The notes under the pieces were generated by a model, which was given only the letters and a program-made list of their open reading frames with translations, was not told the origin of the DNA and did no database searches. A DNA stretch of 64,000 nucleotides, taken from positions 1-64,000 of IMG/VR virus record IMGVR_UViG_3300033571_022960; one strand, given 5' to 3'. Positions 1,672 to 31,936 of the stretch are shown here, one piece after another. This DNA is from a virus. How positions within the stretch are numbered: the first letter of the stretch is position 1; each line of letters opens with the position of its first letter. A program made the translations under genes and the position numbers.

Positions 1672-2426
1672 TGTTCTGGCAAATAGAAGAAGTAAAAGAG
1701 GTTAAAAAAGAATTACCAATTACCACATTAAAAAGTGATGATTTTTGGTATTATTCTCCAAGTACAGGACTGTACATTGGTTCAAATATGGATATTATAA
1801 TATATAAAGATTTAAGTAATGGTACTTATTTTTCAAGTGTAACTGATATTGAAGTTAAAGGAAATTTTATTTTTTGGGATAAAAAAATACAGAATGGTAA
1901 ACAAAAATGTAGAATATCAATTCTTGATTTAGAAGAAATTGATATTAAAAAATTACCTTTTGTTCCACCAACAAATATTAAATCAAATAAAGAAGAAGGT
2001 TGGTATTATAATACATTTTATTTTAATGATAATAAAAAAGATGGTTTTTATTATATTTATTTTAAAATTATTAATAATGAATTAGTTGCAGTTTATAGTC
2101 AAAAAGGTGAAAGATTCATTGATAAAACTAAATATTTAGAAACATTTAAAAAAACTAAAAAGTATAAAGTTGATTCAAATAATACGATTAATTTCTTAGA
2201 AAAAAAATTAACTGAATATTTAAAAATAAAAGAAGATGGTTGGTATAAAAATGGAATATTTTATTTTAAAAGTTTGAATAATGAATTAGTTGCAGTTTAT
2301 TCTGAAAGAATAAATTCTTTTATAGATATAACAAATTACCAAGATATATTTAAAAAATTAGATAATGATGATAAAATTAATTCACCTAATTTAATTAATT
2401 TTTTACAAAAAAAATTAACCGTTTAA
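1671..2426 (+). CDS. Hypothetical protein with MFWQIEE leader and internal duplication
   Basis: 251 aa; NNELVAVYS...INFLxKKLT occurs twice. Confidence 0.75.
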   Translation: MFWQIEEVKEVKKELPITTLKSDDFWYYSPSTGLYIGSNMDIIIYKDLSNGTYFSSVTDIEVKGNFIFWDKKIQNGKQKCRISILDLEEIDIKKLPFVPPTNIKSNKEEGWYYNTFYFNDNKKDGFYYIYFKIINNELVAVYSQKGERFIDKTKYLETFKKTKKYKVDSNNTINFLEKKLTEYLKIKEDGWYKNGIFYFKSLNNELVAVYSERINSFIDITNYQDIFKKLDNDDKINSPNLINFLQKKLTV

Positions 2427-4234
2427 TTCTTCACTCTAATTGAAATATCAGTTAGGAATTTTATCTCATACAAAGAATTTGGTTCACCAAATAAAGTAAA
2501 TTCACTTACATCAATTTCTTTAGTTACATTATCTTTATAAGGTTGTGATGATTCATTTAAAGAATAATTACCACCAACTTTTGCAAAAATTCTAATACCA
2601 AGAACGTTTAAAACTCCATTAATATTATTAATTTCCTCAATTAAACTACCCAAAAATATATTTTCACCCATTTCATATTTAGTTGTTGAAAAAAAACTAT
2701 TAATTCTATTAATTGCAGTTAAAATGATTTCTGATTGATTAGATTTGTCAGTATATAAATCCACTTCTACACCTATATTTAATATTTTACCATCATTAAT
2801 GAGTACATAATCATTAATCATACGATAATCTGATAAGTATTCTGATATATTTTCCTTTAAAGTATTTGTTGAAGTATTATTTAATTTACCTGCAGAATCC
2901 AAACCCAATATATAAATTAAAATTTTATTTTGAGATTCTTTAATACCAACTTTATAAGGTAAACCAAAACGTGAAGGAATTTTATAAATTTGTGTTAAAT
3001 AATCCCTAATTGTAACACAACGATTTTGTGAAGAAAAATTCCATGCAATTAATTTTCTTATTTGTTCTATTGAAGGTTCATCCACACCACCAATTGCAGG
3101 TATTGGATTATTAACTACTAAAGAATTTCTTACTGCATTATTTAATGTTGAATTTTGACCACTTATTAAAAAATTTACCTGACCTATTTGTGTTAATGTA
3201 TTTGGTCCTACATTGGATAAAGAACCACCACCAATTCTATATCTTATAAATAAAGTATTTCCTGCAGGTGGAATTTCACCCAATGATATGTTATTTAAAA
3301 AATCACCAATTCTTTGTTGGAAATTATTATTAATAAAATCACCTATATAATCATTACCAGTACCACTACCGAATGTTATTTTACAAAATCCTAAATCAGT
3401 ATATTCTTTTATAAATTTCTTTGTTATTCTAATATATTTTCCTGGTCTAACATTTGGTGAATCTGAAATTCTTGTTGTATCTTCAATAAAAACTTTATCT
3501 TCTGCAAGTGTATCAACTTCCCACCATCTATTATTTTGATTTAAAAAATCATCTATTGTTGGGTTTGTTGTAATGTTTGTTCCTTGTATATTAATTATTT
3601 GTTCTATTGATAATACATTTTGTTCAGGTAAAACTACTTCTAAAAAAGGGATGACATCATTATCTCTTATAATTCTCCTAAAAATTCTTGTTGTTCCTGC
3701 AACTACCAATTCCCTTTTTGTTATATTATATGATACAATTTGACCTGATGAATTAATATTTGGTAAAATTGTTCTATTTGGAACTCCACCAGTTGTAAAA
3801 GGTGATTTAAAATCTATATCATCAAGTAATTCAAAAGTTTGTCCACCACCTTGAACTTGAGAACCTTGTCTTATTGTTGGACAATATGAAACATCAAATG
3901 TATCTGCAAGTGTTGGTACTGTAACTGTAAAATCCACAAGTGTTATTGCAGGTCTTTTACCAGGTACTTTTAATCCATACGTTCTTGCCAAAGAAAGTAA
4001 GGATTTTCTTTGTTGAGCATAGTCTAATTGAGTTTCATTAAATACCCTATCTGTATGAAAAGATAGAATATCTACTGAACCTGCCATTAAATCAAGAAAT
4101 AATGAACCAATTGATGCATCAGAAAAATCTTGTAATATATCTGGGTAATATCTTTGTATAAAAGTAATTAATTCCCCTTTTACACCAAGAAAATCACGAG
4201 AAGTATAGTTTATTTGTTTGTTTATGTTTGACAT
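2423..4234 (-). CDS. Baseplate wedge protein (T4 gp6-like)
   Basis: N-terminal INYTSRDF...QDFSDASIGSLFLDLMA...LSFHTD...AQQRKSLLSLARTYG and NPIPAIGGVDEPSIEQIR...QNRCVTIRDY are typical of gp6/baseplate J. Confidence 0.85.
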   Translation of the reverse strand: MSNINKQINYTSRDFLGVKGELITFIQRYYPDILQDFSDASIGSLFLDLMAGSVDILSFHTDRVFNETQLDYAQQRKSLLSLARTYGLKVPGKRPAITLVDFTVTVPTLADTFDVSYCPTIRQGSQVQGGGQTFELLDDIDFKSPFTTGGVPNRTILPNINSSGQIVSYNITKRELVVAGTTRIFRRIIRDNDVIPFLEVVLPEQNVLSIEQIINIQGTNITTNPTIDDFLNQNNRWWEVDTLAEDKVFIEDTTRISDSPNVRPGKYIRITKKFIKEYTDLGFCKITFGSGTGNDYIGDFINNNFQQRIGDFLNNISLGEIPPAGNTLFIRYRIGGGSLSNVGPNTLTQIGQVNFLISGQNSTLNNAVRNSLVVNNPIPAIGGVDEPSIEQIRKLIAWNFSSQNRCVTIRDYLTQIYKIPSRFGLPYKVGIKESQNKILIYILGLDSAGKLNNTSTNTLKENISEYLSDYRMINDYVLINDGKILNIGVEVDLYTDKSNQSEIILTAINRINSFFSTTKYEMGENIFLGSLIEEINNINGVLNVLGIRIFAKVGGNYSLNESSQPYKDNVTKEIDVSEFTLFGEPNSLYEIKFLTDISIRVKN

Positions 4235-4235
4235 C

Positions 4236-4688
4236 TTATTTATAATTATTTAAAATTGATTTTATAAAATTAAAAAAACTTTTAAATCCAAACCAGGGTA
4301 ACGTTTTTCCATCATTCCATCGGATGGTGTTAACAGATGGTTCTTTTGTTCTAATTGTAAAAAAATCTTTAGGAAAAGTACGTATTTTTAAAATATCATG
4401 AATGTTATTATTATTATTATCTATTTGATATATTTGGTATATACTATCTTCATTTTCTTCCATAAATAACTTATAGTTATTATTAATATATTCTTTTAAT
4501 TTCATCATTAATTTTTTTAATTGTTCTTCATTTAACATTTCCATTCTAAAATCACCGATTTCTTCGATTGGTTTTTTTAATAATTCATTAATATATTCCT
4601 CCCTTTGTTTTTCCTGCTCACTTGCACGAGATTTTAAATTCAAACCCTCAATTAATTTTAATTGTTTTTCAGTAATTATATATTTCAT
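4236..4688 (-). CDS. LKSRA-tag family protein, single module (putative head-packaged protein)
   Basis: MKYIITEKQLKLIE|GLNLKSRASEQEKQREEYI. Confidence 0.8.
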   Translation of the reverse strand: MKYIITEKQLKLIEGLNLKSRASEQEKQREEYINELLKKPIEEIGDFRMEMLNEEQLKKLMMKLKEYINNNYKLFMEENEDSIYQIYQIDNNNNNIHDILKIRTFPKDFFTIRTKEPSVNTIRWNDGKTLPWFGFKSFFNFIKSILNNYK

Positions 4689-4693
4689 ATATC

Positions 4694-4718
4694 ATAAATA
4701 TTCCACCAATATATTTAT
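4694..4718. promoter_or_regulatory. Divergent ATATTTAT motifs (putative late promoters)
   Basis: Minus-strand copy at 4694-4701 before 4688; plus-strand copy at 4711-4718 before 4734. Confidence 0.55.
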
Positions 4719-4733
4719 ATATAAAATTAATTA

Positions 4734-5606
4734 ATGGCAACTGGAAATTACGGTATAAAGAAATTATCTGATGTAACACCAGATGATATGCAAATATTTT
4801 ATTCTTTTTCCCCAAATAGGGAAACACAATCAACAACATACGAAGAATTAAATGCAAATCAAATAATAACAGAATCAACGGATATTAATGGAAATTTTTT
4901 TCAAGGTTTATATAATTTACAATTACCAACATCAACATTTAATCAAAGAGGAATTTATACATTAGTTATAAAACCAAGAGAATATACAATTAATATAACA
5001 GATTGTGGTGTATTATCTGCAATACCTGATGTTAAAGGTATTGTTTTAGACAGTGCAGTATTACCACAAAATTTAGGAATAAATAATTCATTAGTTGGTT
5101 TTAGAATAGAATATTTTGATTCTTTGGGGAATAAAACAAGAAATCTTTTTAGGATTATAACTTCATCAAATAGATGCGAACCAGTAAATCAGAATCTAAC
5201 TAATACCATCCAAAAGGCAATAAGATATAGATTAACTGATTCAGGTAGTTTAATATTTTGTACTGTTACCCCATCATCTTCATCACAAGTAAAACCAAAT
5301 ATTTTACCTTTTATTGGTGAACCTGGTCAACAAATTGTTATTTCAAATACTTTTTTTGACCCAGTTGTTATGGAAATTGAATTGGTTGAGCATGATTTTA
5401 ATACACTTGCAAATGGTTTATTTGGAAATCAAATTAAGGATATTAGAAATGGTATTTATACAATTTATGATGAAAATAACAATATTTATAAACAATATAG
5501 TTTATATGTTGTACAATCACAAACTGATGAACCATTATATGAAGTAAGGGAAGAAAAAGATGTAATTGATACAACACAAGATTTTAATACAATTACGAAT
5601 GTCTAA
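4734..5606 (+). CDS. Probable virion structural protein, function unknown
   Basis: 290 aa, beta-rich composition, follows ATATTTAT, lies between baseplate and portal genes. Confidence 0.65.
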   Translation: MATGNYGIKKLSDVTPDDMQIFYSFSPNRETQSTTYEELNANQIITESTDINGNFFQGLYNLQLPTSTFNQRGIYTLVIKPREYTINITDCGVLSAIPDVKGIVLDSAVLPQNLGINNSLVGFRIEYFDSLGNKTRNLFRIITSSNRCEPVNQNLTNTIQKAIRYRLTDSGSLIFCTVTPSSSSQVKPNILPFIGEPGQQIVISNTFFDPVVMEIELVEHDFNTLANGLFGNQIKDIRNGIYTIYDENNNIYKQYSLYVVQSQTDEPLYEVREEKDVIDTTQDFNTITNV

Positions 5607-8600
5607 TAAAATAAATCAAATATTAGGGAAATATGGAATTACTTTATCTTTGAAAGAAATTTTACAAAGATGGAATGAATCACATAGAGGTTATCATAAT
5701 ATTGAACATTTAAAGGATTTATTAAGACAAATTGGTAAAATCAATTCAAAAGAAAAGGAATTATTGGTTTTAATTTCACTTTTCCATGATATTATATATG
5801 AACCAAAAAATTCTGATAATGAAGAACAAAGTGCAAAATTTTTAATTAATAATGTTAAAGAAGTAACAGAAGATATTAAAAAAGTTTATCAATCAATAAT
5901 AGATACAAAAACACATAAATCATCAAACGAATTATCAGAAATATTTAACAAAATGGATATGAATATTGTAACAAGAAATTTTGATGAATTATTAAAGTGG
6001 GAACAAGGAATACGAAAAGAATATTCAGTTTTTTCTGATGAAGATTATAAAAAAGGAAGAATTAAATTTTTAACATCATTATTAAATGATTATCCTGAAA
6101 ATAAGGAAAATTTGATGAAATTAATTGATTATGTTGGTGGTTTAAATGAAGGATTGAGTGATAAGATTAAATCTCGTGCAAAACAACAAGAGATTCAATT
6201 AAAACAATATATTGATAATATTGACATAAATTCATATTTTGAAGATTCTCCGACAATAAAAGAAGAAAATTACAATAAATTAAAGAAGTTAATTAATAAC
6301 TTCCCAAACGAAGATTTGATATATAAAATTTTAAAAGATACGGATAAAAAATATAGAAAACAAATTAATTATTTATTTGAAGAATTTGCATATATAATTG
6401 GTGCAGAAAAAATTCAAGAATTTATTATTTACTTTATAAATGAAATGAAAGATGATTTGAATAATTATTCAATTGATAAAATAACAAGTAGAAGTATATG
6501 GTCAGATTTGGATAATAAATTAATTTTGAATAAATTAAAAAAATATAAAGATTCAAAATTAGTTGATGAAATTTATAATAAAAATTTTAGATATTACAAG
6601 AAATTTAAAACTATTAATGAAAATTTAAATCTTAAATCTCGTGCAAGTGAACAAGAAAAACAAATGAAACAATATGTTGATAATATTGATTTAAAAAATC
6701 TTTTAGAAAATGATTTGGATTCAGTTAAATTAAGGGAATTATTAGATAAATTCCCAAATCAGTATATGGTTGATAAAATTATAAATGATTTACCAAATGA
6801 ATTAAATAGGGTATTAAATTATGTAATTGGAAGAATTTATAATTATTCTGATGGTGAAAATACTTTATTAAAATTAATTAATAAATTAGGGGATAAATTG
6901 AATAAATATGGGGTTGGGACTTTAATAGATTTAACTTATTCACATTCACCCATTGAATTTTTTCCACAGTTAAACAAAGAAAAAATATATAATGAAATAA
7001 AAAAATATAAAGGAGAAGAATTTTTTAATGATATTTTTGAAAATAATTATTATGTTAGAAAAGAAGAATTGGACAAATGGATAAAAAAACAAAATGAAAA
7101 AAAAATTAAAGAATCATTAAATCTAAAATCTCGTGCAAGTGAGCAGGAAAAACAAAGGGAAGAATATATAAAAAACATTTTAAACAAACCTATTGAAGAT
7201 ATAACATATACTGATTTAAAATTATTAGATGATGAAAATATAGTTTCTTTATTTTACAAAATAAAAGAAAAATATGGTAATGAATTTGATGTTTTTTTGT
7301 TAAAATCTCAAATATATTGGAAAAAAAGTTATATTAAAATTTACAATAAAGAAAATGAAATATTAAATCTAACAATTTCACCTTTTAATTTATTATTTAA
7401 AGGAAATCCTATAAATACGATTGGTCATGGTTTAAAACTTATAAAAGGTAATTCTTTAAATGAAAGTTCAGAATCTAGAGAAGAACAATTTAAAATATTT
7501 GCAAAGAAAGTTGCAAAAAAAATGGGAATTCCTGAACCTCAATATCTTGATAGTGGTTTTTTCGGTTCTGCGTTTATAATAGATAATGATAGAATATTAA
7601 AAATAACAACTGATAAAAGTGAGGCATTAAATGCAAATAAAATAAAAAATAAAACCACACATTTTATTGCAAAAGTATTTGATGTTAGGGGATTTAAATT
7701 TAATGATAAAGAATATTTTTTTATTATATTGGAAAAAGTTAAAACAGATTTTGAATTTTTATATGGGATAATTGAAAATTTAATTTCTTGGTTTGATGAA
7801 AATTATGATGAAGATTTTGTTACATACATAAGTGAAGGTGAATTTAAAGATTTAAAACAACTGGAAAATAAATTATATAATGATAATAAACAACTATATA
7901 ATTTCTTCACAAATTTTGTTGAATTAAAAAAAGAATTAATGAAGTATAATATAACTTCCGCAGATTTTATAAATGCATCAAATTTGGGTTTCAGAGGTAA
8001 AAGAGTTGTTGCGTTTGATTTAGGAATTTCTGATGATAATGGTGATATTGAAAATGTTGATTTATTTGAGAATTTAAATTTAAAAAGTCGTGCAAGTGAA
8101 CAAGAAAAACAAAGAAAGAAATATATTAATAATATATTAAATAACAAAAATTTGGAAGATTTAACTTCTATTGATATAAGTAATTTAAAAAATTTATTAT
8201 CAATGGATGAATTTAATGATTTAATTGTTGGTTATTTAAAAACAACGATTGATAAACATTTTTTTGGTAAAGAAGATTATGAAAGTAAAATATCTACTGA
8301 TGCATTTGGATTTGATAATTTAAAAATGAAATTTAAATCAAGAAATAATCTATCTAATAAAATTAATATATCCATTGGTTTTGATAATATTAAAAATAAA
8401 CTTTATGTTCATAAATTTGATGGTATTGGTATAGATAATGGTAGGTACTTTAATAAATTAAAAGAATTAATTGATTATGTTATTAATGACCATAGAAAAC
8501 CTGTATATGAATCTTTAAATCTTGTTTCTCGTGCAAATCAACAAGAAGAACAAAGAAATGATTATATAAGAAAAGAAGGTATAAATGATTATACAATTAC

Positions 8601-9798
8601 TTTTTTATATGGTAAAAATCATAATGACTTGCCAAAAGATATACAACTAATGATTTTTTCTTTTTATGAAAATTTAATGGAAAACTTAATGAGAAGTGAT
8701 GATAATCATTGGCAAAGAAGGGTACTTAAAAATGAAATTAGTAGGGATATTTTTAAACTATTACCAGATGAATTTAAATCTGATATTATTGATTTAAGAA
8801 TTGATACTGATATGGGTTTAGATAAAAATCATTTTGATAGTGCATCTAATGAACAAAGGGATAAATATTTAAACAAGGCAAAAGAATATAGGCAAATCTA
8901 TACTTGGGAACAAAAATATTTAGATAGTCTTAATGAAAGTTTAAATTTAAAATCTCGTGCAAATCAACAAGAAAAACAAAGGGATGAATATGTTAAAAAT
9001 ATATTAAAAAAAGATTTATTTGATTTAAAACCAAATGATTTAGATTTTTTAAATAATAGAAAATATCGTACATTATTTAATAATAAAGTTAAAGAATATT
9101 TTTATAATATAGGTTTTTTATTTGATGATATTGATTTAACCGAAGATGGTAATTTTCCTGGTTTAATTTTAAAAAATGGTAATGAAAAATATAATAATAA
9201 TTTAATGTTTTTCCTTGTTAATAATGGTACTATAAAAGTTTATAAGAGTGATAACATATTAAAGTTTTATGATGGTAAATATTTTATAAGATATGTAACT
9301 AATATGTTAAAAAATTTAGATGAATCTTTAAACCTAAAATCTCGTGCAAATCAACAAGAAAAACAAAAACAAGAATATATAAATCAGATTTTAAATGGTA
9401 ATTCATTAGAAGAATTAACTCCAGAACAAAGAATAAAACTATTACAAATTGATTGGACTGTATTAAAACCTTTATTTGTTAAAATTAAGGAAATTTATGG
9501 GGAAAGAAATAAGGTTTATGGTTCAGTAGATACTGTTTTTGATAATAAAATATATTGTCATATTGGTCAAAATGTTAGTATTAAATTATCACCCACTAAT
9601 GGTTTATTTACTGTTAGTTGGGGATTGAAAAAATCTGATTTTAAATCATTTAAAGGAGTTTTAAAAAAGTTAGAAGAAATAAAGTCGGAATATCCTTTTT
9701 TAATTGAGAATTTTAATTTAAAATCTAGAGCAAAAGACCAAGAAAAACAGGCAATACAATATTACACTAATAAAATTAAAGGGGGGGGGGGTAATTGA
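5599..9798 (+). CDS. Modular polyprotein: HD hydrolase, LKSRA-tagged modules and a protein-kinase-like module
   Basis: ATG at 5599 overlaps the upstream stop; HD motifs YHNIEH/FHDIIY/EEQSA; eight xxE|xLxLKSRA-type tags plus one partial; kinase motifs LDSGFFG, LKIT, DFINASN, FDLG. Confidence 0.85.
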   Translation: MSNKINQILGKYGITLSLKEILQRWNESHRGYHNIEHLKDLLRQIGKINSKEKELLVLISLFHDIIYEPKNSDNEEQSAKFLINNVKEVTEDIKKVYQSIIDTKTHKSSNELSEIFNKMDMNIVTRNFDELLKWEQGIRKEYSVFSDEDYKKGRIKFLTSLLNDYPENKENLMKLIDYVGGLNEGLSDKIKSRAKQQEIQLKQYIDNIDINSYFEDSPTIKEENYNKLKKLINNFPNEDLIYKILKDTDKKYRKQINYLFEEFAYIIGAEKIQEFIIYFINEMKDDLNNYSIDKITSRSIWSDLDNKLILNKLKKYKDSKLVDEIYNKNFRYYKKFKTINENLNLKSRASEQEKQMKQYVDNIDLKNLLENDLDSVKLRELLDKFPNQYMVDKIINDLPNELNRVLNYVIGRIYNYSDGENTLLKLINKLGDKLNKYGVGTLIDLTYSHSPIEFFPQLNKEKIYNEIKKYKGEEFFNDIFENNYYVRKEELDKWIKKQNEKKIKESLNLKSRASEQEKQREEYIKNILNKPIEDITYTDLKLLDDENIVSLFYKIKEKYGNEFDVFLLKSQIYWKKSYIKIYNKENEILNLTISPFNLLFKGNPINTIGHGLKLIKGNSLNESSESREEQFKIFAKKVAKKMGIPEPQYLDSGFFGSAFIIDNDRILKITTDKSEALNANKIKNKTTHFIAKVFDVRGFKFNDKEYFFIILEKVKTDFEFLYGIIENLISWFDENYDEDFVTYISEGEFKDLKQLENKLYNDNKQLYNFFTNFVELKKELMKYNITSADFINASNLGFRGKRVVAFDLGISDDNGDIENVDLFENLNLKSRASEQEKQRKKYINNILNNKNLEDLTSIDISNLKNLLSMDEFNDLIVGYLKTTIDKHFFGKEDYESKISTDAFGFDNLKMKFKSRNNLSNKINISIGFDNIKNKLYVHKFDGIGIDNGRYFNKLKELIDYVINDHRKPVYESLNLVSRANQQEEQRNDYIRKEGINDYTITFLYGKNHNDLPKDIQLMIFSFYENLMENLMRSDDNHWQRRVLKNEISRDIFKLLPDEFKSDIIDLRIDTDMGLDKNHFDSASNEQRDKYLNKAKEYRQIYTWEQKYLDSLNESLNLKSRANQQEKQRDEYVKNILKKDLFDLKPNDLDFLNNRKYRTLFNNKVKEYFYNIGFLFDDIDLTEDGNFPGLILKNGNEKYNNNLMFFLVNNGTIKVYKSDNILKFYDGKYFIRYVTNMLKNLDESLNLKSRANQQEKQKQEYINQILNGNSLEELTPEQRIKLLQIDWTVLKPLFVKIKEIYGERNKVYGSVDTVFDNKIYCHIGQNVSIKLSPTNGLFTVSWGLKKSDFKSFKGVLKKLEEIKSEYPFLIENFNLKSRAKDQEKQAIQYYTNKIKGGGGN
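6148..9750 (+). repeat. Dispersed ~45 bp coding repeats (core TCTCGTGCA) separated by unrelated sequence
   Basis: Cores at 6172, 6637, 7129, 8086, 8527, 8953, 9340, 9724; further copies at 4623(-), 16249, 17237, 17612. Confidence 0.9.
9781..9791 (+). repeat. G11 homopolymer tract
   Basis: Eleven consecutive G in an extremely AT-rich background, five nt before the ORF stop. Confidence 0.95.
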
Positions 9799-10006
9799 TT
9801 ATAACATTTCAAACATATTACCTTATGAAATAAAAATACTAAATATTGAAAATATAATTGAAAAAATTAATTCTTTATCAGTAAAAGAATTTGATTTTGC
9901 ACCAGATTATTTAAAAATAAAATATATTAAAAAACGACTTAATCTTGGTTATGATTTACATAATAATGAAGAGAAGTATTATGAGGAAAATATTCATCTG
10001 TTTTAA
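9791..10006 (+). other. Out-of-frame continuation of the last polyprotein module
   Basis: 71 open codons VIDYNISNILPYEIK...ENIHLF* with no ATG start, joined in frame if the tract has 10 G. Confidence 0.65.
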
Positions 10007-10032: not shown

Positions 10033-10040
10033 ATATTTAT
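10033..10040 (+). promoter_or_regulatory. ATATTTAT motif before portal
   Basis: 17 nt upstream of the ATG. Confidence 0.5.
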
Positions 10041-10057
10041 TATAATAATGCAAATTT

Positions 10058-11890
10058 ATGTCCAATAATAATCAAAAATTAACTACATATCAAAAATTAA
10101 CCAGACTTTTCAATAGTGGTATGCCAGTTCGTTCTACTTTTGAGATTCCTCAACAAGAACTAATTACTGCGAAATCAAGGGAAGAATTAGAATTTTTAAA
10201 ATTACAATCACAACAAAATAAATATGTAAGAGACCAATGGCAAAAAGTAGAAAATGATATGTACCAAAAGTCATTTAACTACCAAATGTCAAGGGTTGCA
10301 GTTTACTCTGATGCAGAAAATATGGAGGCATTTCCTGAGATTAGTAGTGCATTAAGCCTCTATTCTGCTGAGGCTACCACAACTGGAGAAGATGGTAAAG
10401 TAATGCAGATTTATTCGGATTCTGAAAGAATAAAATCTATATTGGAGGATTTATTCTTTAATAGATTGGATTTGAATTCAAACTTATATTCTTGGGCAAG
10501 GAATTTAATAAAACTAGGAGATAATTTTTTGTATCTCAAAATTGGTGGTGAAAAAATTGGTATTGTTGGTACATTACAATTACCGAATATTGAAATAGAA
10601 AGAGAAGAAGGTGATACTTACAGCGTAGTAAGTGAAGAAAAAAAACATACTAAATTCTTATGGAGAGGAAGAAATAGGGAATTTAATACATGGGAAATTG
10701 CACATTTTAGATTATTGGGTAAAGATTCTTTTTTACCTTATGGAACTTCACTTCTTAGTGACGCAAGACGTTATTGGAGGTTATTATTAATGTCAGAAGA
10801 TGCAATGTGTACATACCGTGTGTCAAGAGCATCAGAAAGAAGAGTATTTAAGATAAATGTGGGTAATATGAATGATGAAGATGTTGAGGCGTACATCAAT
10901 AAAATTGCAAATAAATTTAAACGTCAACCAATAGTTGACCCAAGAACTGGACAAGTGGATGTTAGATTTCACAATATGGATGTAACTTCTGATTTCTTTA
11001 TTCCTGTTAGGAATGATAATGCTGGAACTGTAATAGATACTTTACCAGGGGCTAATAATCTAGACTCAATTGCTGATATAGAGTATCTACAAAATAAACT
11101 TCTTTCATCAATGCAAATTCCAAAAGAATTTATCGGTTTTGATTCATCCACTGGTGAAGGAAAGAATTTATCAATGATGGATATTCGTTTTGCAAGAAAT
11201 GTAAATAGAATACAACAAGCATTAATACAAGAATTAAATAAAATTGCAATTATACATCTTTATCTTTTAGGATTTGAGGATGAATTATCAAATTTCTCAC
11301 TAAGACTTAATAACCCATCAACCCAAGCAGAACTTCTTAAATTAGAATTATATCGTGAAAGATTTGCTTTATATAGGGATGCAACTGCAAAAATGGATAA
11401 TGGATTTGCAATGACATCAATGACATGGGCAAAAAAGAATATTCTTGGTATGAGTGATGATGAAATCAAATTAGACTTACAACGTCAAAAAATTGAGGCA
11501 GTTGCCGCACAAGAATTAAATAATATTACAGGTCTTAAAACAGGTATTTTTGATGATATTGATAGACTTTATAAATCAGTATCAGGAGTACAAAATCCAC
11601 AACCAGTTGAAGGTAATTCAGGTAGTGGAGGTGGATTTGGTGGAGGAGGTGGTTTTACATCATCAACAGATTTAGGTGGTGAAACTGAAACCCCATTTGG
11701 TGAAGAAACGCAACCAACAGAAGAAGGTGGATTAGATTTGGGTGGTGAACAACCTACAACAGAACCTCAAGGTGAAACACAAGAACAACCAGAGGGTGAA
11801 ACATTTCCTGAATCTGTAAAGAAAAGAAATAATTTAATTACAGAAGATATTAATCAAATGATTGAACAAATTAATAAATTCATAAAGTAA
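10058..11890 (+). CDS. Portal protein (T4 gp20-like)
   Basis: RRYWRLLLMSEDAMCTYRVSRASERRVFKINVGNM, DFFIPVR, TVIDTLPGA, DIEYLQNKL. Confidence 0.93.
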   Translation: MSNNNQKLTTYQKLTRLFNSGMPVRSTFEIPQQELITAKSREELEFLKLQSQQNKYVRDQWQKVENDMYQKSFNYQMSRVAVYSDAENMEAFPEISSALSLYSAEATTTGEDGKVMQIYSDSERIKSILEDLFFNRLDLNSNLYSWARNLIKLGDNFLYLKIGGEKIGIVGTLQLPNIEIEREEGDTYSVVSEEKKHTKFLWRGRNREFNTWEIAHFRLLGKDSFLPYGTSLLSDARRYWRLLLMSEDAMCTYRVSRASERRVFKINVGNMNDEDVEAYINKIANKFKRQPIVDPRTGQVDVRFHNMDVTSDFFIPVRNDNAGTVIDTLPGANNLDSIADIEYLQNKLLSSMQIPKEFIGFDSSTGEGKNLSMMDIRFARNVNRIQQALIQELNKIAIIHLYLLGFEDELSNFSLRLNNPSTQAELLKLELYRERFALYRDATAKMDNGFAMTSMTWAKKNILGMSDDEIKLDLQRQKIEAVAAQELNNITGLKTGIFDDIDRLYKSVSGVQNPQPVEGNSGSGGGFGGGGGFTSSTDLGGETETPFGEETQPTEEGGLDLGGEQPTTEPQGETQEQPEGETFPESVKKRNNLITEDINQMIEQINKFIK

Positions 11891-11893
11891 TGC

Positions 11894-11901
11894 ATATTTA
11901 T
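11894..11901 (+). promoter_or_regulatory. ATATTTAT motif
   Basis: 20 nt upstream of 11922. Confidence 0.45.
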
Positions 11902-11921: not shown

Positions 11922-12644
11922 ATGAAATTTAGTGTAATCAAATCAAACATCAATGAAACTTTAGTTAATTATTTTACTAATAAAAAAGATAATTATAGAA
12001 GTTTTAGTGTGGAATTTTTTAAATTATTAAGGGAAAATAAAGATATAAAAAAATTATTTAAATTCTATGATGATATTAATTCTTTAGAATTTAAAAATGA
12101 TTCAGTTGCACTTCATTTTATAAACGAAAATAAAAAAGGTTTAAATTATAAATCAAAACAAACTTTAGTAAATTTATTTAAAAAATGGAATATTCATCTA
12201 AATGAAAATATTAGTGTTAATGTTGTAGATTCAAATATTGATTTACTTTTTGAAAGTGAAGATGAACAATATTTTTATTCTAAAGATTTTTTGGTTGAAC
12301 ATCTTAAAAAACATAAATCAAAACAAGATGAAATAATAAATGAAAATTTGAATATACCACCTTCTGTTATGATTAATTTAATATCTGAAAAATTCAATCA
12401 GAAATATTCTGATAAATTAAATGAAACTGAAAAAGAAATTTTAAAATCAACCATTGAAGGTGAAACTAAGAAAATATTTGAAAGTTTAAAGGATAAGACC
12501 TTAAAATTGATTGATAATAAAAAATCAGATTTTGATAATGAAATGATAAGTGAGGTTGAAAATAAATTAAAAGGAATGGTTTATAATGAATCAACTTACA
12601 TTAAAGATATTTCTAAAATAACTGAATTGTTAAATTCTATTTAA
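11922..12644 (+). CDS. Hypothetical head-region protein downstream of portal
   Basis: 240 aa, helical, several LNE/INE sites. Confidence 0.7.
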   Translation: MKFSVIKSNINETLVNYFTNKKDNYRSFSVEFFKLLRENKDIKKLFKFYDDINSLEFKNDSVALHFINENKKGLNYKSKQTLVNLFKKWNIHLNENISVNVVDSNIDLLFESEDEQYFYSKDFLVEHLKKHKSKQDEIINENLNIPPSVMINLISEKFNQKYSDKLNETEKEILKSTIEGETKKIFESLKDKTLKLIDNKKSDFDNEMISEVENKLKGMVYNESTYIKDISKITELLNSI

Positions 12645-15447: not shown

Positions 15448-16161
15448 TTAATTTATTATTCCTGTTCCAGTTATTGTTGAATTACCTGATAAAATTATTG
15501 CATTACCAACGGTTATTTCTCCATTATTTATGATATTACTATCAATTAACAATAAATATCCATCAATAAATATTCTTGCTCTTTTAATAAATTCTACTGT
15601 ACCAATTGTAATTTGTGTATTGGAAGATTCTAAAGTTAATGTACTTCCTGATAATACCATATTACCTTTAATTGATAAGGTTTCATCACTACCTAAAACT
15701 TCTTCTTTATTTTCTAACCAATGTTTTGTATAAAGATTATTATCACAATAAATTAAACATCCATCACTTTCTACTAAAGTGTTATTTTCCTCGATTTCTG
15801 ATTTTGTAAAAGAAGGTAAAATATTAATATATAATTTTTCTCTTACTGGTGCAATTATATAAGAACAATCATCTAAAAAGTCAATTCTAAATTGTCCTTC
15901 AAATTGTCCTGATTCTAATGTATCATTTATTGACCATTTATATTGTATATAATATTCTTTTGTTTCTACATTCTGAACTTCAACAATTTCACATTCTTTA
16001 TTAATGATTTTAAATGTTCCATTTTGGGTATTTTTCATTGAAAATGTTGCAGTTGCATTTTCAAGTAAATCATGGAATTTTTTATAATCTAATCTACCAT
16101 CCATATAAAGTTTCATTTTAAGGTTTGGTAGAACAGAGTTTTGTTTTATGTAGAAATTCAT
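15448..16161 (-). CDS. BppU N-terminal-like baseplate/fibre adaptor
   Basis: FYIKQNSVLPNLKMKL...ATATFSMKN...IQYKWSINDT...GQFEGQFRIDF. Confidence 0.6.
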   Translation of the reverse strand: MNFYIKQNSVLPNLKMKLYMDGRLDYKKFHDLLENATATFSMKNTQNGTFKIINKECEIVEVQNVETKEYYIQYKWSINDTLESGQFEGQFRIDFLDDCSYIIAPVREKLYINILPSFTKSEIEENNTLVESDGCLIYCDNNLYTKHWLENKEEVLGSDETLSIKGNMVLSGSTLTLESSNTQITIGTVEFIKRARIFIDGYLLLIDSNIINNGEITVGNAIILSGNSTITGTGIIN

Positions 16162-16173
16162 TTAAAAGTTTAA

Positions 16174-16189
16174 TAATAAATATTTATTA
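16174..16189. promoter_or_regulatory. Perfect palindrome TAATAAATATTTATTA carrying ATATTTAT on both strands
   Basis: Fills the 30 bp gap between divergent genes 16161(-) and 16192(+). Confidence 0.6.
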
Positions 16190-16191
16190 TT

Positions 16192-16746
16192 ATGAAATAT
16201 TTAATTACGGAAAAACAATTAAGATTAATTGAGGATTTGGAGTTAAAATCTCGTGCAAATGACCAGGAAAGAAAAAGGGAAGAATATGTTAATCAGATTT
16301 TAAAAAATAAAAATTTTAAAGATTTAAATTCTACTGGTAAAAGACTTGTAATTAATTTAAAACCAGAAATTTTAGACAAAATTGTTACTGAAATTTTTAA
16401 TTGATTAAAAATTATTTACCCATCAAAAAAGGTAGAAATAGATAAAAATGATGATGATTATAATCTTATCACAAAAACTATACAAATATCATATAAATCA
16501 AGAGAAAAAGAAAGGTTTAATAGAATTAAAGGACAATTAAAATTATTAAACTCCAAAATCACAACAAAAGAATTGTATAAACAAATGCCTGAATATGAAA
16601 TAAGTATTAAAATTTATTTTGGGGTTGATATTACTATCATTTATAAGACTTCTAAATTTGTTTTTAATAATACTAAAGAATCTACCTACGATAATTTTTT
16701 TGAAGATTTAAATAACATTATTAAAGACCCATTTACAACTTGGTAA
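16192..16746 (+). pseudogene. LKSRA-tag family gene interrupted by an in-frame TGA
   Basis: TGA at 16402-16404, then the same frame stays open for 113 codons to TAA at 16744-16746. Confidence 0.75.
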
Positions 16747-17162: not shown

Positions 17163-17174
17163 ATAAATATTTAT
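17163..17174. promoter_or_regulatory. Palindrome ATAAATATTTAT between divergent genes
   Basis: Between 17132(-) and 17180(+). Confidence 0.55.
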
Positions 17175-17179
17175 CTTAT

Positions 17180-18073
17180 ATGAAATATATAATTACGGAA
17201 AAACAATTAAGATTAATTGAGGATTTGGAGTTAAAAAGTCGTGCTGGAGACCAGGAAAAACAAAGGGAAGAATATATAAATGAATTGTTAAATAAAAAAG
17301 TTGATAATAAAAATTTACTTACACTATATAATATTTTAAAATTAAAGGGTTTAAAGGTAGGATTAACAAATATTCATACAAATGATGAAATAAGGTTAGA
17401 AAAAAATAAAAATGATACAATTTTTATAAGGAATAATGTTACTTTTGGTTATGATGAAAAAATAAGTTTATCACATTTTAGTAATGGTAATATTAAAAGA
17501 TATTATGATATTTATTATTCTGAAATTAAAACCTATAAAGATTTATTAGAAGAAATAGAAAAATTCTTAATTAGGGAAAATATTAAATTAAAAGAAAACC
17601 TTAATCTAAAATCTCGTGCACCACAACAAGAAAAACAAAGAGAGGAATTTGTTAATAATATACTAAAAAAAGGATTTGAAAATTTAACTGGTGGTGATTT
17701 GGAAAATATACAAAAACTTGATACAGAAAAAACCGAAGAAATATTAAAACAAATTTGTGATAATTTAAAGGAATTTGAACCTGAAATAAAGAAATATGAT
17801 TTAATTAGTTATTATTTTTGGAAAATATATTTTAATAATATTAAACCAAAAAAATATAAAGATTTTAAATCAGAAAATTTTTTACATATTACAGATAAAT
17901 CAGCAATATCTTATGATGATACTTATTTTTACTTTTTTGAATATTGGTTATCTGAAAATAATAAACGTAGAGAACAAAAAAGAGTAATAGTTGAAACAAA
18001 AATATTTGAATTCAAAACCATAAAAGAATTAATAAAATACATAAAAGAACATAATGAACCTGAAATACAATAA
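17180..18073 (+). CDS. LKSRA-tag family protein, two modules
   Basis: RLIE|DLELKSRAGDQEKQ and KLKE|NLNLKSRAPQQEKQ. Confidence 0.8.
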   Translation: MKYIITEKQLRLIEDLELKSRAGDQEKQREEYINELLNKKVDNKNLLTLYNILKLKGLKVGLTNIHTNDEIRLEKNKNDTIFIRNNVTFGYDEKISLSHFSNGNIKRYYDIYYSEIKTYKDLLEEIEKFLIRENIKLKENLNLKSRAPQQEKQREEFVNNILKKGFENLTGGDLENIQKLDTEKTEEILKQICDNLKEFEPEIKKYDLISYYFWKIYFNNIKPKKYKDFKSENFLHITDKSAISYDDTYFYFFEYWLSENNKRREQKRVIVETKIFEFKTIKELIKYIKEHNEPEIQ

Positions 18074-29491: not shown

Positions 29492-31936
29492 TTAAACATT
29501 TGCAAAAAATGCACCATTTTGTGTGATATTAAATGTTACATTTATTACTTCTAATGCTCTTGTAGGTCTAATGTATATTTGACCATTTAATTCATTAGTA
29601 TCTAATGCTTCAGGAGAATCATCCAATATAACTCTGAAATCTAATAAACCTCTTTGACGTTTAATATCTTCAAGAATAGGATTTACTTGAGATAAGAATT
29701 GATTTCTTACAACAATATCATTTTGTTCAAATAACAATCTTTGACCAACTGCAGAAATTAAAACCCTTGCCCTTAATAACAATCTACGAACATTAATTCT
29801 ATCTAGTGCAGATTCTCTAACTTGTAAAGTTTTTTGTCCATAAATAGTTACATTAGTGTCAGTAAATGTTGCAATTGGATTAATTCTTGCTGCATATAAC
29901 TCATCTCTTTGTGCTTGAGTTAATTTAATTCTTGCTCTAACTGCATTTGTAACACCACGATTTTTACCTGCTGGACTAAACCAGGGTGCAGAAATTTTAT
30001 CAGTTAATGCCATTGTTCTCATTACTGCAACAGTAGGTGGTAAATAAATATTTACACCATTTTCAACATCTCTCCATTGTATCCAGGGGAAATAAGTTGC
30101 AACATAAGAAGAATCCAAATCTGTATTGTTTAAAATATCTATTGCTTCTTCTATATCTGCATCTGGATTAGTCACTACACCACCATTAACATCAGGTGCA
30201 GTAACAACATATAAACAATCACCCCTACCATTACCTTGACTATCACCCTCAACCATAGAAACAGTTTCATTTACAAGTGCAGATTCATTAAAATAATCTA
30301 AACCTGGGGTTGCCAATAAATTAATAGATGTAGATTCAGGATTAGAAAATTCTAAAATACCATTTAAAAATGCATAGTAATCAGAATTACCACCGTTTTC
30401 TACATTAGATAATGTTATTTCATCAAAACCACCAAAATTAGAACCACCAACACGATAAGTATCACCTTTAGTTCTATTATTTTGATACACATCCCAACCA
30501 TCAAATCCACCTGCAACAGTTAAAGTAAATTTTCTTAAACGTTTATTGGTAAAAATATTATTTGGGTCATTTATATCAGTAACATCTTTAAGACTATAAT
30601 CAGTTGTTTGGAAAGTAACAGAAGTTTCACCATCTACTGTTGAAACTGTTGCATCAACATCCATGTGGAATGCGTCAGTTGTTACAGTCCATTCATCACC
30701 ATTACTTTGTAAACCTTTAAAATCAAAGAAATCTTGGTCTAAACCTCTTCTATCAGTTAAACCAAAATACCATTTAGATGGTTGTAAAGGTGGTGTATAT
30801 TCTGTTAAATATTTAATTTTCGGTCTTGTTAAAGAATTGTATTGTCTTTGTTTAAAACCTAAGAAACCACATGCAAATGCATCATTAGGATGTTCAGTAT
30901 TCATTTCTAATGTAATATAAGAAGATTTTTGTTGAAATTCACCATCCAATGTACCAATTCTTTTTGCAATGTAACTTGGTTGTGTTCTATTCATGGAACA
31001 TCTTCTAAATGTTTCTAATACACTTATTGAATTATCTGTGTCATTAAAATTACGTACTATGACATCAAACTCTTTTAATTCTGGGTCAATATTTTCAATA
31101 GTTATTTTTATTTCTTTATTTGCATTATCTCCATCAGAAATGGAAATAAATTTAAATAATTTAAATATTTCAGAACCACGTACTTCTGATAATATCCAGG
31201 GTGATTCTGGAGTTCTCCATTGTGTTTTATAATTACTGATAGTAGAAATAGAACTTAAAGAAGATACTGTTAAACCACTAATAAAACCAGATGCATTAAA
31301 ATAAGATAATGATTCAGGATAAATTTCTTCTACCCAAAGTGCAGTATTTTTACCTTTTGGTGTATCACCTAATACATTTACAATATATGAACTTGAATCC
31401 TTATCTAATGATACTTGATATGTTTTTTGTCCATCAACTGTATTTGCAACTAATTGAAAATCATTTAAAACATTTGTTGTTACACCACTAAATGTTGAAC
31501 CTGTTACATTTATTGTTAAACTTGTTGTATAACAAATACTAGGTGAAGTTAATCTACGACTTCTTAAAACTGCAACCACTTGATTATTATAACCAGTAAC
31601 ACCTGATACACTAATAACCCAACCATCACATGTTTCTTCATAACCTGAATAACCTAAAACCCTTACTACAAAAAGTTGATTTGATTCTGCCAAATATTCT
31701 CTGGCAATATAAGGTAATTCATATCTTGGTCTGCCATCACCATATTTTTCTGTGTTTTGACCACCAAAAAGTGTTTGAAATTGACCGTAGTTTTCAACAA
31801 ATATTGGTTCAAATGCAGGACCTTTAACAGTTTCACCTACTAAACCTAAAGTGGTTACACCAATATTTCTTGTTACAAAAGATAAGTCATTTTCTTTGAA
31901 ATAAACCCCTGGGGATACTTTAATTAAATTTGCCAT
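29492..31936 (-). CDS. Tail sheath protein (T4 gp18-like)
   Basis: SPGVYFKENDLS, VGETVKGP, LLATPG, YFPWI, PWFSPAG, RINPI, IYGQKTLQ...RINVRRLL. Confidence 0.95.
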   Translation of the reverse strand: MANLIKVSPGVYFKENDLSFVTRNIGVTTLGLVGETVKGPAFEPIFVENYGQFQTLFGGQNTEKYGDGRPRYELPYIAREYLAESNQLFVVRVLGYSGYEETCDGWVISVSGVTGYNNQVVAVLRSRRLTSPSICYTTSLTINVTGSTFSGVTTNVLNDFQLVANTVDGQKTYQVSLDKDSSSYIVNVLGDTPKGKNTALWVEEIYPESLSYFNASGFISGLTVSSLSSISTISNYKTQWRTPESPWILSEVRGSEIFKLFKFISISDGDNANKEIKITIENIDPELKEFDVIVRNFNDTDNSISVLETFRRCSMNRTQPSYIAKRIGTLDGEFQQKSSYITLEMNTEHPNDAFACGFLGFKQRQYNSLTRPKIKYLTEYTPPLQPSKWYFGLTDRRGLDQDFFDFKGLQSNGDEWTVTTDAFHMDVDATVSTVDGETSVTFQTTDYSLKDVTDINDPNNIFTNKRLRKFTLTVAGGFDGWDVYQNNRTKGDTYRVGGSNFGGFDEITLSNVENGGNSDYYAFLNGILEFSNPESTSINLLATPGLDYFNESALVNETVSMVEGDSQGNGRGDCLYVVTAPDVNGGVVTNPDADIEEAIDILNNTDLDSSYVATYFPWIQWRDVENGVNIYLPPTVAVMRTMALTDKISAPWFSPAGKNRGVTNAVRARIKLTQAQRDELYAARINPIATFTDTNVTIYGQKTLQVRESALDRINVRRLLLRARVLISAVGQRLLFEQNDIVVRNQFLSQVNPILEDIKRQRGLLDFRVILDDSPEALDTNELNGQIYIRPTRALEVINVTFNITQNGAFFANV

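Follow-up and report, generated by a model that had tools for sequence, protein, structure and literature searches.

Why should a single long open reading frame next to a phage portal gene carry the same short peptide again and again, each time directly behind a glutamate? The ORF in question (P0001; 5599..9798, + strand) lies in a 64,000-nt window, the whole stretch of DNA that was analysed, and is open from the ATG at 5599 to the stop at 9796-9798, encoding 1399 aa in ten modules. A preliminary description had proposed that its product is cut after nine glutamates into separate proteins with a common N-terminal peptide. Translation of the ORF placed the nine Glu codons exactly where they had been described (aa 184, 341, 505, 622, 824, 971, 1113, 1242 and 1370), and a profile HMM of the tag recognized the peptide behind eight of them. 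The junction consensus of these eight copies is (L/I/V)-x-E/x-L-N-L-K-S-R-A-x-x-Q-E-K-Q (the slash marks the proposed cut), with 48-60 bits and an E value of 1e-14 to 1e-17 per copy; the tag after aa 184 contains a 2-residue insertion (GLSDKIKSRA), and in the tag after aa 971 a V replaces the K. The one exception is the site ending at 7464 (SLNE/SSESREEQ), which has L-N-E only, without the tag. Since this LNE joint is kept in the orthologue P0006 (LNE/SNSRQEK), 7464 is plausibly a joint of another kind.

The junctions are highly constrained at two positions. In the 133-kb contig, 16 tag copies are distributed over six ORFs, eight of them outside P0001 in five ORFs, and a search of 1.84 billion representative proteins gave 16 true matches to the tag family; these few relatives contain about 59 distinct tag copies. 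Another match of the profile search, P0013 (4303 aa), was a false positive without a KSRA-type motif. All 15 internal junctions of the contig read (L/I/V)-x-E, which bears out the earlier claim that the junctions of P0001 obey the L/I-x-E rule. Moreover, P3 is Leu, Ile or Val in 55 of the 55 junctions collected, and never Ser, Ala or Gly, with a pattern that demanded Glu at P1 and left P3 free; the background probability of such a P3 residue, given the Glu, is 0.26. P2 and P4 vary among the junctions, and P1' is nearly always Asn, Gly, Ser or Asp, residues that typically cap or break a helix. From these P1' residues and the MSA-based model (see below), we tentatively read the tag helix as capped just after the junction Glu.

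Synonymous codons differ at the invariant tag residues (Glu, GAA/GAG; Leu, TTA/CTT/CTA/TTG/CTG; Ser, TCT/AGT; Arg, CGT/AGA), indicating selection on the peptide and ruling out a DNA-level repeat. Reading of the sequences also led us to reject a self-cleaving element or intein: Ser follows the Glu no more often than G, N or D does, which leaves no constant nucleophile. Beyond the tag, we found no consistent (L/I)-x-E that would mark a second conserved cut. The motif itself occurs at 80 sites in the 3052 aa of the tagged proteins, or 2.6 per 100 aa versus 1.9 expected. As (L/I)-x-E is not depleted within the modules, the depletion argument for cleavage fails, and the low information content of the motif counts against the cleavage reading.

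The modules, all on the + strand, differ in what they carry behind the joints. Module 1 (5599..6150, ending GLNE) is an HD-type phosphohydrolase (phrog_19425, E 1.7e-19, aa 21-163), and the huge phage LR745206 encodes a stand-alone HD homologue of 186 aa whose C-terminus comes to lie within a few residues of the corresponding joint. Module 2 (6151..6621, 157 aa, ending TINE) starts with the divergent tag GLSDKIKSRAKQQEIQ and has a body without family match; module 3 (6622..7113, 164 aa, ending KIKE), its paralogue, starts with the tag NLNLKSRASEQEKQ, both tags being recognized by the HMM. Four modules consist of the tag and a small alpha/beta module that we designate type 1: module 4 (7114..7464, 117 aa, ending SLNE), which aligns with the type-1 family; module 6 (8071..8511, 147 aa, ending PVYE), with an orthologous module in P0006; module 8 (8938..9324, 129 aa, ending NLDE), found by the tag HMM, whose homologues occupy different positions in P0007 and P0015; and module 9 (9325..9708, 128 aa, ending FLIE), found by both the tag HMM and the type-1 alignment. 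Module 7 (8512..8937, 142 aa, ending SLNE) joins the tag variant SLNLVSRANQQEEQ to another body and also has an orthologous module in P0006. Module 5 (7465..8070, 202 aa, ending DLFE) has no tag and is kept in P0006. Its neighbours in the ESM Atlas are viral proteins that stand alone and are 200-240 aa long. In one nearby cluster 11% of the members carry a T7-kinase Pfam, so that module 5 is possibly kinase-like; no significant match was obtained against Pfam or PDB sequences.

The modules had been called largely dissimilar. At the level of BLAST between tag-stripped modules this is correct, as only modules 2 and 3 (E 1.7e-6) and, weakly, modules 4 and 9 (E 0.008) match each other, but modules 4, 6, 8 and 9 can be aligned as members of a single small alpha/beta type whose ends are conserved. 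Searches of P0001 and its relatives against Pfam and PHROGs left most modules without a family match and revealed no peptidase or MuF domain. Among 50,697 phage records, megablast found no match to the ORF, and tblastn matched stand-alone HD homologues only.

Module 10 (9709..9798, +) carries a tag of a second type (NFNLKSRAKDQEKQAIQYY..., recognized by the tag HMM), a subtype shared with P0008, P0016 and P0005, and then ends in GGGG and a stop. A G11 run (9781..9791, +) truncates the module, whose body goes on in the +1 frame for 71 codons (9791..10006, +); a tract of G10 or G13 would bring module 10 back into frame. This continuation is 47% identical over 64 aa to the type-2 module body of P0008 (E 2e-10). 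The G11 tract is the sole G run of at least 8 bases in the contig, which has one C8 run besides. P0019, a protein from another assembly, also ends in GGGG before its stop, which fits G12.

The locus had been described as a single gene beside the portal, and in this respect the description has to be revised: at least six tagged genes occur genome-wide, scattered over the contig and not grouped in a head cluster, and tagged polyproteins also occur on two related contigs that lack the portal and protease families. Both of these contigs are fragments, so this absence says little. Within the window, the tag HMM identified a stand-alone protein of 150 aa (4236..4688, - strand) composed of the 14-aa leader MKYIITEKQLKLIE, the tag and one module, whose gene overlaps the start of the baseplate-wedge gene (phrog_219, 2423-4234); a stand-alone protein of 70 aa (16192..16404, +) with leader, tag and a short body; and a two-module protein of 297 aa (17180..18073, +) in which leader, tag and module are followed by KLKE/NLNLKSRA and another module. 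The leader of the stand-alone members, MKY(I/L)ITEKQLxLIE, has 14 residues and directly precedes the tag. Three proteins begin directly M-(P/G)-x0-1-LxLKSRA, a translation start that mimics the predicted cut product.

Comparison with relatives supports the view that the modules are autonomous units with the junction as their exact boundary, as had been proposed. P0001 and its orthologue P0006 differ by whole modules swapped at the joints, P0018 comprises the leader, the tag and a module matching the third part of the genome ORF 107861-109165, and the HD homologue of module 1 ends close to the joint. One set of module families appears at differing positions in different polyproteins, and modules of relatives are swapped, dropped or separately encoded exactly at the joints. 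Among the relatives, one has a NUDIX domain and an endolysin-like C-terminus, and there is a weak RNA 2'-phosphotransferase/ART-like match (E 0.0019); such cargo domains would fit injected effectors. No further loci were found in viral contigs searched with P0006 and P0009, or in metagenome contigs searched with the tag alignment and P0006. The tag family is tiny in the databases and hence easily overlooked, and we found no published description of such a tag-jointed architecture.

Is a suitable protease at hand? A candidate for the enzyme that the proposal presupposed is encoded on the same contig, a T4 gp21-type prohead protease of 233 aa at genome positions 102527-103228 (- strand), which scores above the cut-off for PF03420 (75 bits, E 3e-22). 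The T4-type portal follows the polyprotein gene (10058..11890, +; PF07230, E 4.6e-72; phrog_213), and the portal, capsid and protease genes all have T4-family matches; the source phage is a distant T4-like phage and probably a jumbo phage. T4 gp21 cleaves by the rule L/I-x-E (PMC9026906). The N-terminal 60 residues of the capsid protein contain three such sites (IKE20/A, LKE44/N and INE60/A), of which E44 falls, by alignment offset, at the T4 gp23 cut position.

The tagged genes also share an upstream element with virion genes. The promoter-like motif ATATTTAT lies at 4711..4718 (+), ahead of ORF 4734-5606, which runs 8 nt into the start of the polyprotein gene, and the corresponding motifs of the other tagged genes in the window are located at 4694-4701 (for 4236-4688), 16180-16187 (for 16192-16404) and 17167-17174 (for 17180-18073). 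It occurs 12-38 nt upstream of 29 of the 197 genes, including those for the portal, the protease, the tail sheath, a scaffold-like protein and four tagged proteins; the remaining two tagged genes stand behind an ORF that bears it. As points against the reading preferred below, the motif is AT-rich, and its designation as late is based on four identified virion genes.

To what extent the conserved peptide is a tag, and not part of a fold, can be judged from structure prediction. For the second module of the 17180-18073 product, AF2 gave a model (pLDDT 76.5) of the one module type that could be predicted reliably. Here QEKQREEYINxIL, the second half of the peptide, forms the well-predicted N-terminal helix of the module, and the MSA-based model has a break at residues 10-11, directly past Glu8-Asn9. 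According to this model, the universal tag would extend over no more than about the first 14-16 residues, and the following helix (REEYINxIL; AIEYYTKKI in type 2) would belong to the module's own fold. The opposing possibility, a tag that forms an integral helix within one repeated fold, is thus borne out in part, for the second half of the peptide in this module type, and the first ~14-16 residues behave as a universal tag. A single-sequence fold of modules 8-10 (pLDDT 57) instead runs one helix through each of two junctions, giving helices of 34-40 residues. Foldseek searches of the module model against PDB and BFVD returned nothing at E <= 0.001. With VIA-align, PsiB scored highest (Z 7.6), and the T4 MotA C-terminal domain, a toxin immunity protein and AcrIIA11 reached Z 5-6, all in alignments beginning at residue 33 or later, past the tag helix; as these scores are all within the noise range stated for the tool, we claim no fold family.

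Taken with moderate confidence, the reading that we prefer is that the tagged genes encode capsid-cargo polyproteins cut by the prohead protease, which would amount to the T4 internal-protein system in polyprotein form with the N-terminal tag kept. The tagged proteins would be synthesized late and enter the prohead core, where the gp21-type protease would cut after the invariant Glu and free each module as its own protein with the N-terminus x-LNLKSRA; that the predicted products share one common N-terminal peptide, as first described, is supported. Staying inside the head alongside the DNA, the released pieces would pass into the next host cell, like T4 IPI-III and Alt. The leader MKY(I/L)ITEKQLxLIE may have a role like the T4 capsid-targeting propeptide, with removal at LIE/, and the first ~14-16 tag residues may serve both in prime-side recognition and as an element that binds the core or a partner and is kept after the cut. 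The lack of an N-terminal leader in P0001 counts against the proposed entry into the prohead core. More tentatively, x-LNLKSRAxxQEKQ might be a universal address label, by which a labelled set in fixed ratio is organised in the head or ordered in its exit through the tail; we regard this extension as possible rather than probable. Encapsulin cargo-loading peptides follow a logic comparable to this proposed label-based, plug-in loading of a capsid with module exchange at the labels.

The alternative that survives best, though we consider it rather unlikely, is an uncleaved polyvalent multi-domain protein in which the conserved peptide is a connector helix that permits domain shuffling without misfolding. 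Polyvalent proteins with 2-15 domains are well documented in phages, and occur in conjugative elements too (Iyer et al. 2017, PMC5512222). They resemble the present proteins in carrying many unrelated effector-type domains per polypeptide with heavy shuffling, and delivery together with the DNA has been proposed for them. P0001, with the HD hydrolase and at least eight other modules, has the two or more unrelated effector-type domains by which that class is recognized. The frequent LxE sites, the integral helix in the second half of the tag and the two junctions lying inside long helices in the low-confidence single-sequence model also speak for this alternative. However, a connector would leave the invariant Glu and the hydrophobic P3 amid varying neighbours unaccounted for, and it fits poorly with P1' being mostly N, G, S or D, with genes that begin exactly at the post-Glu residue and with single-module proteins whose conserved 14-aa leader places LIE just before the tag. 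In addition, release of polyvalent domains, where it occurs, is ascribed to embedded peptidases (MPTase and others), and the available part of that account mentions no conserved tag at every joint (PMC5512222), whereas here a tag is present and the uniform joint motif fits a separate prohead protease.

That the chains are processed without being head cargo seems improbable to us. Another phage or host protease might act, or another bond be cut (e.g., after K-S-R), and the products might work inside infected cells or elsewhere in the virion, for example in the baseplate. The invariant S-R-A, 6-8 residues past the Glu and thus further than most proteases read, would suit this possibility, as would the overlap of gene 4236-4688 with the baseplate-wedge gene and the scatter of the tagged genes outside any head cluster. 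On the other hand, the sole conserved acidic/hydrophobic pattern fits the gp21 rule and has its like in the capsid protein, and late-made HD, NUDIX and kinase-like enzymes would, by analogy with T4 Alt (PMC9026906), make most sense as cargo for the next cell. Equally doubtful is a structural protein of the head interior, its tandem paralogous domains forming a scaffold- or inner-body-like mass that is cut and then largely discarded or kept as structure with no effector role: at least half of the modules share one small alpha/beta type whose end helices are conserved, and paralogous inner-body and ejection proteins processed by a protease are found in giant phages (PMC9026906, PMC10052503), but the same chains contain HD, NUDIX and endolysin-like enzyme modules, and module turnover between relatives is unusually fast for structural parts.

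The preferred reading, a capsid-cargo polyprotein, has one of its closest parallels in T4 IPI, IPII, IPIII and Alt, which are processed by gp21 and carry a capsid-targeting sequence (CTS), the T4-type head and the gp21-family protease being common to both systems (PMC9026906, PMC3012670). In both, a short conserved peptide ending in, or lying next to, L/I-x-E is common to diverse cargo, and cargo content varies between relatives. They differ in that up to ten predicted cargo units stand in one chain here. The CTS is an N-terminal propeptide of ~10 residues that is removed on maturation. The stand-alone members have a short N-terminal leader ending in LIE, P0001 has none, and the tag lies beyond the predicted cut and would stay on the product. 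Neither leader nor tag is known to be related in sequence to the T4 CTS. Giant phages such as phiKZ, 201phi2-1 and SPN3US, large like the present phage, contain many paralogous head-internal proteins cut after Glu, sometimes at several sites, by a gp21-related protease (PMC9026906, PMC10052503). However, there the cuts take propeptides off single proteins at S/A-x-E-type motifs, whereas here P3 is L/I/V and the portal, capsid and protease genes are of T4 families. These sources (PMC9026906, PMC10052503) report neither a single chain that yields several mature proteins nor a shared tag that is kept.

Should the joints prove to be cut within the prohead, one gene would supply many ready-made enzymes and small binding proteins for packing in fixed proportion and as exchangeable cassettes, and the T4 internal-protein idea would be widened from single proteins to polyproteins. 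The cut site and tag would then constitute a short portable peptide that could be tried for loading foreign proteins into capsids, and dozens of uncharacterized small modules would become candidates for roles in host takeover or anti-defence.

The ORF at 5599-9798(+), a polyprotein of ten modules joined by junctions of the form [L/I/V]-x-E/x-L-N-L-K-S-R-A-x-x-Q-E-K-Q (the part after Glu is called the tag), is open over 1399 aa, and all nine Glu codons named in the preliminary description lie in it at the positions assigned to them. Eight are followed by a tag copy scoring 48-60 bits with the tag profile, and the ninth site (7464, SLNE/SSES) lacks the tag, yet is kept in the orthologue of the polyprotein. 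The series of candidate cut sites and tags is confirmed and extends beyond this one gene: 16 tag copies are spread across six ORFs of the contig, at 4236-4688(-), 5599-9798(+), 16192-16404(+), 17180-18073(+), genome 69664-71739(+), which lies outside the window, and genome 107861-109165(+). [L/I/V]-x-E precedes all 15 internal copies (15/15), and the sixteenth is the extreme N-terminus of a protein (MP-LNLKSRA). The C-terminal ~80 residues of the tagged 691-aa protein of genome 69664-71739(+) form a small basic domain that contains Cys and His and matches phrog_7595 (E 1.4e-13), a family of unknown function.

Over all collected proteins there are ~59 distinct tags, three of them at protein N-termini. 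P1 is Glu and P3, two residues before, is L/I/V in 55/55 junctions collected with a pattern that demanded Glu at P1 and left P3 free; by chance L/I/V would stand at P3 with a background probability of 0.26. P2 and P4 vary freely, and P1', read from the junction lists, in which the tag also takes the form DLELKSRA, is almost always N, G, S or D, residues that typically cap or break helices. Different copies use different synonymous codons for the tag's invariant residues, so conservation is at the level of the peptide and not of a DNA repeat.

From the single sequence, modules 8-10 could be modeled only poorly (pLDDT 57), with long helices crossing two junctions. With an alignment of 16 rows, all of one module type, we modeled the second module of 17180-18073 at pLDDT 76.5 and pTM 0.72; the model opens with a short upstream helix, followed by a break at residues 10-11 directly after Glu8-Asn9 and by the tag helix (residues 12-31), after which come more helices, about six strands that form a sheet, and a helix at the C-terminus. 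Fold searches with this model gave no significant match. Since pLDDT is 49 before the predicted cut, 74 across NLKSRAPQQE and >90 from KQREEF on, the model predicts a less fixed universal part of the tag and assigns the tag's second half to the module. In agreement with this, the second half has two forms, REEYINxIL and AIEYYTKKI, each of which goes with a particular type of body behind it. The objection raised in the preliminary description, that the tag might be an integral helix of one repeated fold, would thus apply, for the one module type modeled, to the second half and not to the universal first part.

The modules act as separate, independent units. In a huge phage, an HD protein of 186 aa that stands alone terminates no more than a few residues from the first joint, and the database protein P0018 consists of a leader, a tag and one module, which a three-module protein encoded by this contig has in third place. 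The orthologue, P0006, shares with the polyprotein the HD module (71% identity), a module that may be a kinase, and modules 6 and 7, and has other modules between these and at the end; every difference falls at the joints. BLAST clustering placed 64 modules in 27 groups, whose members occupy differing positions in different proteins, and module content varies among relatives. Among the cargo identified in relatives are NUDIX joined to an endolysin-like C-terminus and, as a weak match, an RNA 2'-phosphotransferase-like domain. In a related phage, the tagged polyprotein L007:8593-10635 (IMGVR_UViG_3300033571_019537) combines small tagged modules with a NUDIX hydrolase and, at its C-terminus, an endolysin-like domain.

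The tagged family is very rare, with 17 matches of the tag profile, one a false positive, among 1.84 billion representative proteins and 11 matches in a word-indexed search of 5.8 billion. Related polyproteins are P0002 (912 aa, 5 tags), P0006 (1109 aa), P0009 (797 aa), P0015 (967 aa) and an ORF on the IMG/VR contig L005 (1200 aa); two IMG/VR contigs of one metagenome hold eight tagged ORFs. Both of these contigs are fragments in which the portal and protease families were not found, so they say little on whether tagged genes and protease occur together.

The polyprotein frame stops after a G11 run (9781-9791), the sole G run of at least 8 bases in the contig, which also has one C8 run. The +1 frame behind it (to 10006) supplies 71 codons, the missing body of module 10, and this continuation is 47% identical (E 2e-10) to the type-2 module body of P0008, another tagged protein. 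The protein version of a second assembly is one residue shorter, as expected from G12, so the tract length differs between assemblies; the difference may reflect sequencing error, population variation or programmed frameshifting.

The contig (133,435 bp, IMG/VR viral, 24.9% G+C; the window is its first 64 kb) is 41% complete by CheckV, and the phage may therefore be a jumbo phage. Its portal (10058-11890; PF07230, E 4.6e-72), baseplate wedge (2423-4234), tail sheath (29492-31936) and, outside the window, major capsid protein (genome 80519-82240(-); PF07068) and gp21-type prohead protease (genome 102527-103228; PF03420, E 3e-22) mark it, by predicted gene content, as a distant T4-like myovirus. 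In an isolate-phage collection, the closest matches of the portal are Microcystis and Flavobacterium phages (~36% identity). Directly 3' of the portal, a 240-aa ORF (11922-12644(+)) without a family match has 12 [LI]-x-E sites; its position, compared with the T4 gene order 20-67-68-21-22, makes it a candidate for a protein of the prohead core or scaffold.

T4 gp21 cleaves after Glu in L/I-x-E, and IP propeptides direct proteins to the core (PMC9026906). The capsid protein of our phage has three [LI]xE sites within its first 60 residues, and LKE44/N corresponds to the T4 cut position by the alignment offset to mature T4 gp23. Upstream of the capsid gene, genome 82260-83576(-) encodes a very acidic, scaffold-like 438-aa protein with 13 [LI]xE sites. 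A weak point for cleavage is that [LI]xE sites are common and that the modules show no depletion of them.

The motif ATATTTAT lies 12-38 nt upstream of 29/197 predicted genes, including the portal, protease, tail sheath, the scaffold-like gene before capsid and four tagged genes (in the window at 4694-4701(-), 4711-4718, 10033-10040, 11894-11901, 16180-16187 and 17167-17174, with more elsewhere in the genome). Both the polyprotein ORF and the one at 107861 overlap the end of a preceding ORF that has it. It is a candidate late-promoter element, whose lateness we infer. It also precedes the genes of a 237-aa protein (15448-16161(-)) and a 906-aa protein (genome 103580-106300(+)), whose N-terminal ~30 residues are nearly identical (MNFYI.. 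NS.LP.LKMKL..DGR.DYK.FH).

A conserved 14-residue leader, MKY(I/L)ITEKQLxLIE, starts three small ORFs and, in variant form, a fourth; it is separate from the tag and itself closes with L-I-E. Three more ORFs outside the window, genome 72618-72866(+), 111218-111589(-) and 107888(+), have leader-like starts (MAKYKITERQLNFVRE, MVRYILTEKQLDLLFE and MKFLITERQLKLFE) and no clear or canonical tag, so leader and tag are separable. The polyprotein itself has no leader, a weak point of the cargo reading. Outside the window (genome 73433-79484 and 111634-113731), many small ORFs start MNLQKT(I/L)xNL(K/Q)KS...FFN and vary in the rest of the protein; they form a second set of paralogues whose N-terminus is constant, with no relation to the LKSRA tag.

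The original interpretation, a single gene supplying the head with tagged proteins freed by the prohead protease, is supported in part: the independent modules and the gp21-type protease on the contig favor it, and the spread of the tag over six ORFs does not fit a single gene. Cleavage and packaging of the tagged proteins are putative. Full-text literature searches found no description of one-chain, many-product cargo with a retained common peptide; the closest known system is that of the T4 internal proteins and CTS, and in architecture the nearest concept is that of the polyvalent proteins (Iyer et al.). In the mechanism proposed here from sequence, a separate prohead protease would cut one chain into many mature products, each keeping a common N-terminal peptide. 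The many products of one chain and the retained peptide would distinguish this phage from the T4 system, and release by a separate prohead protease with retention of that peptide would distinguish it from the polyvalent proteins.
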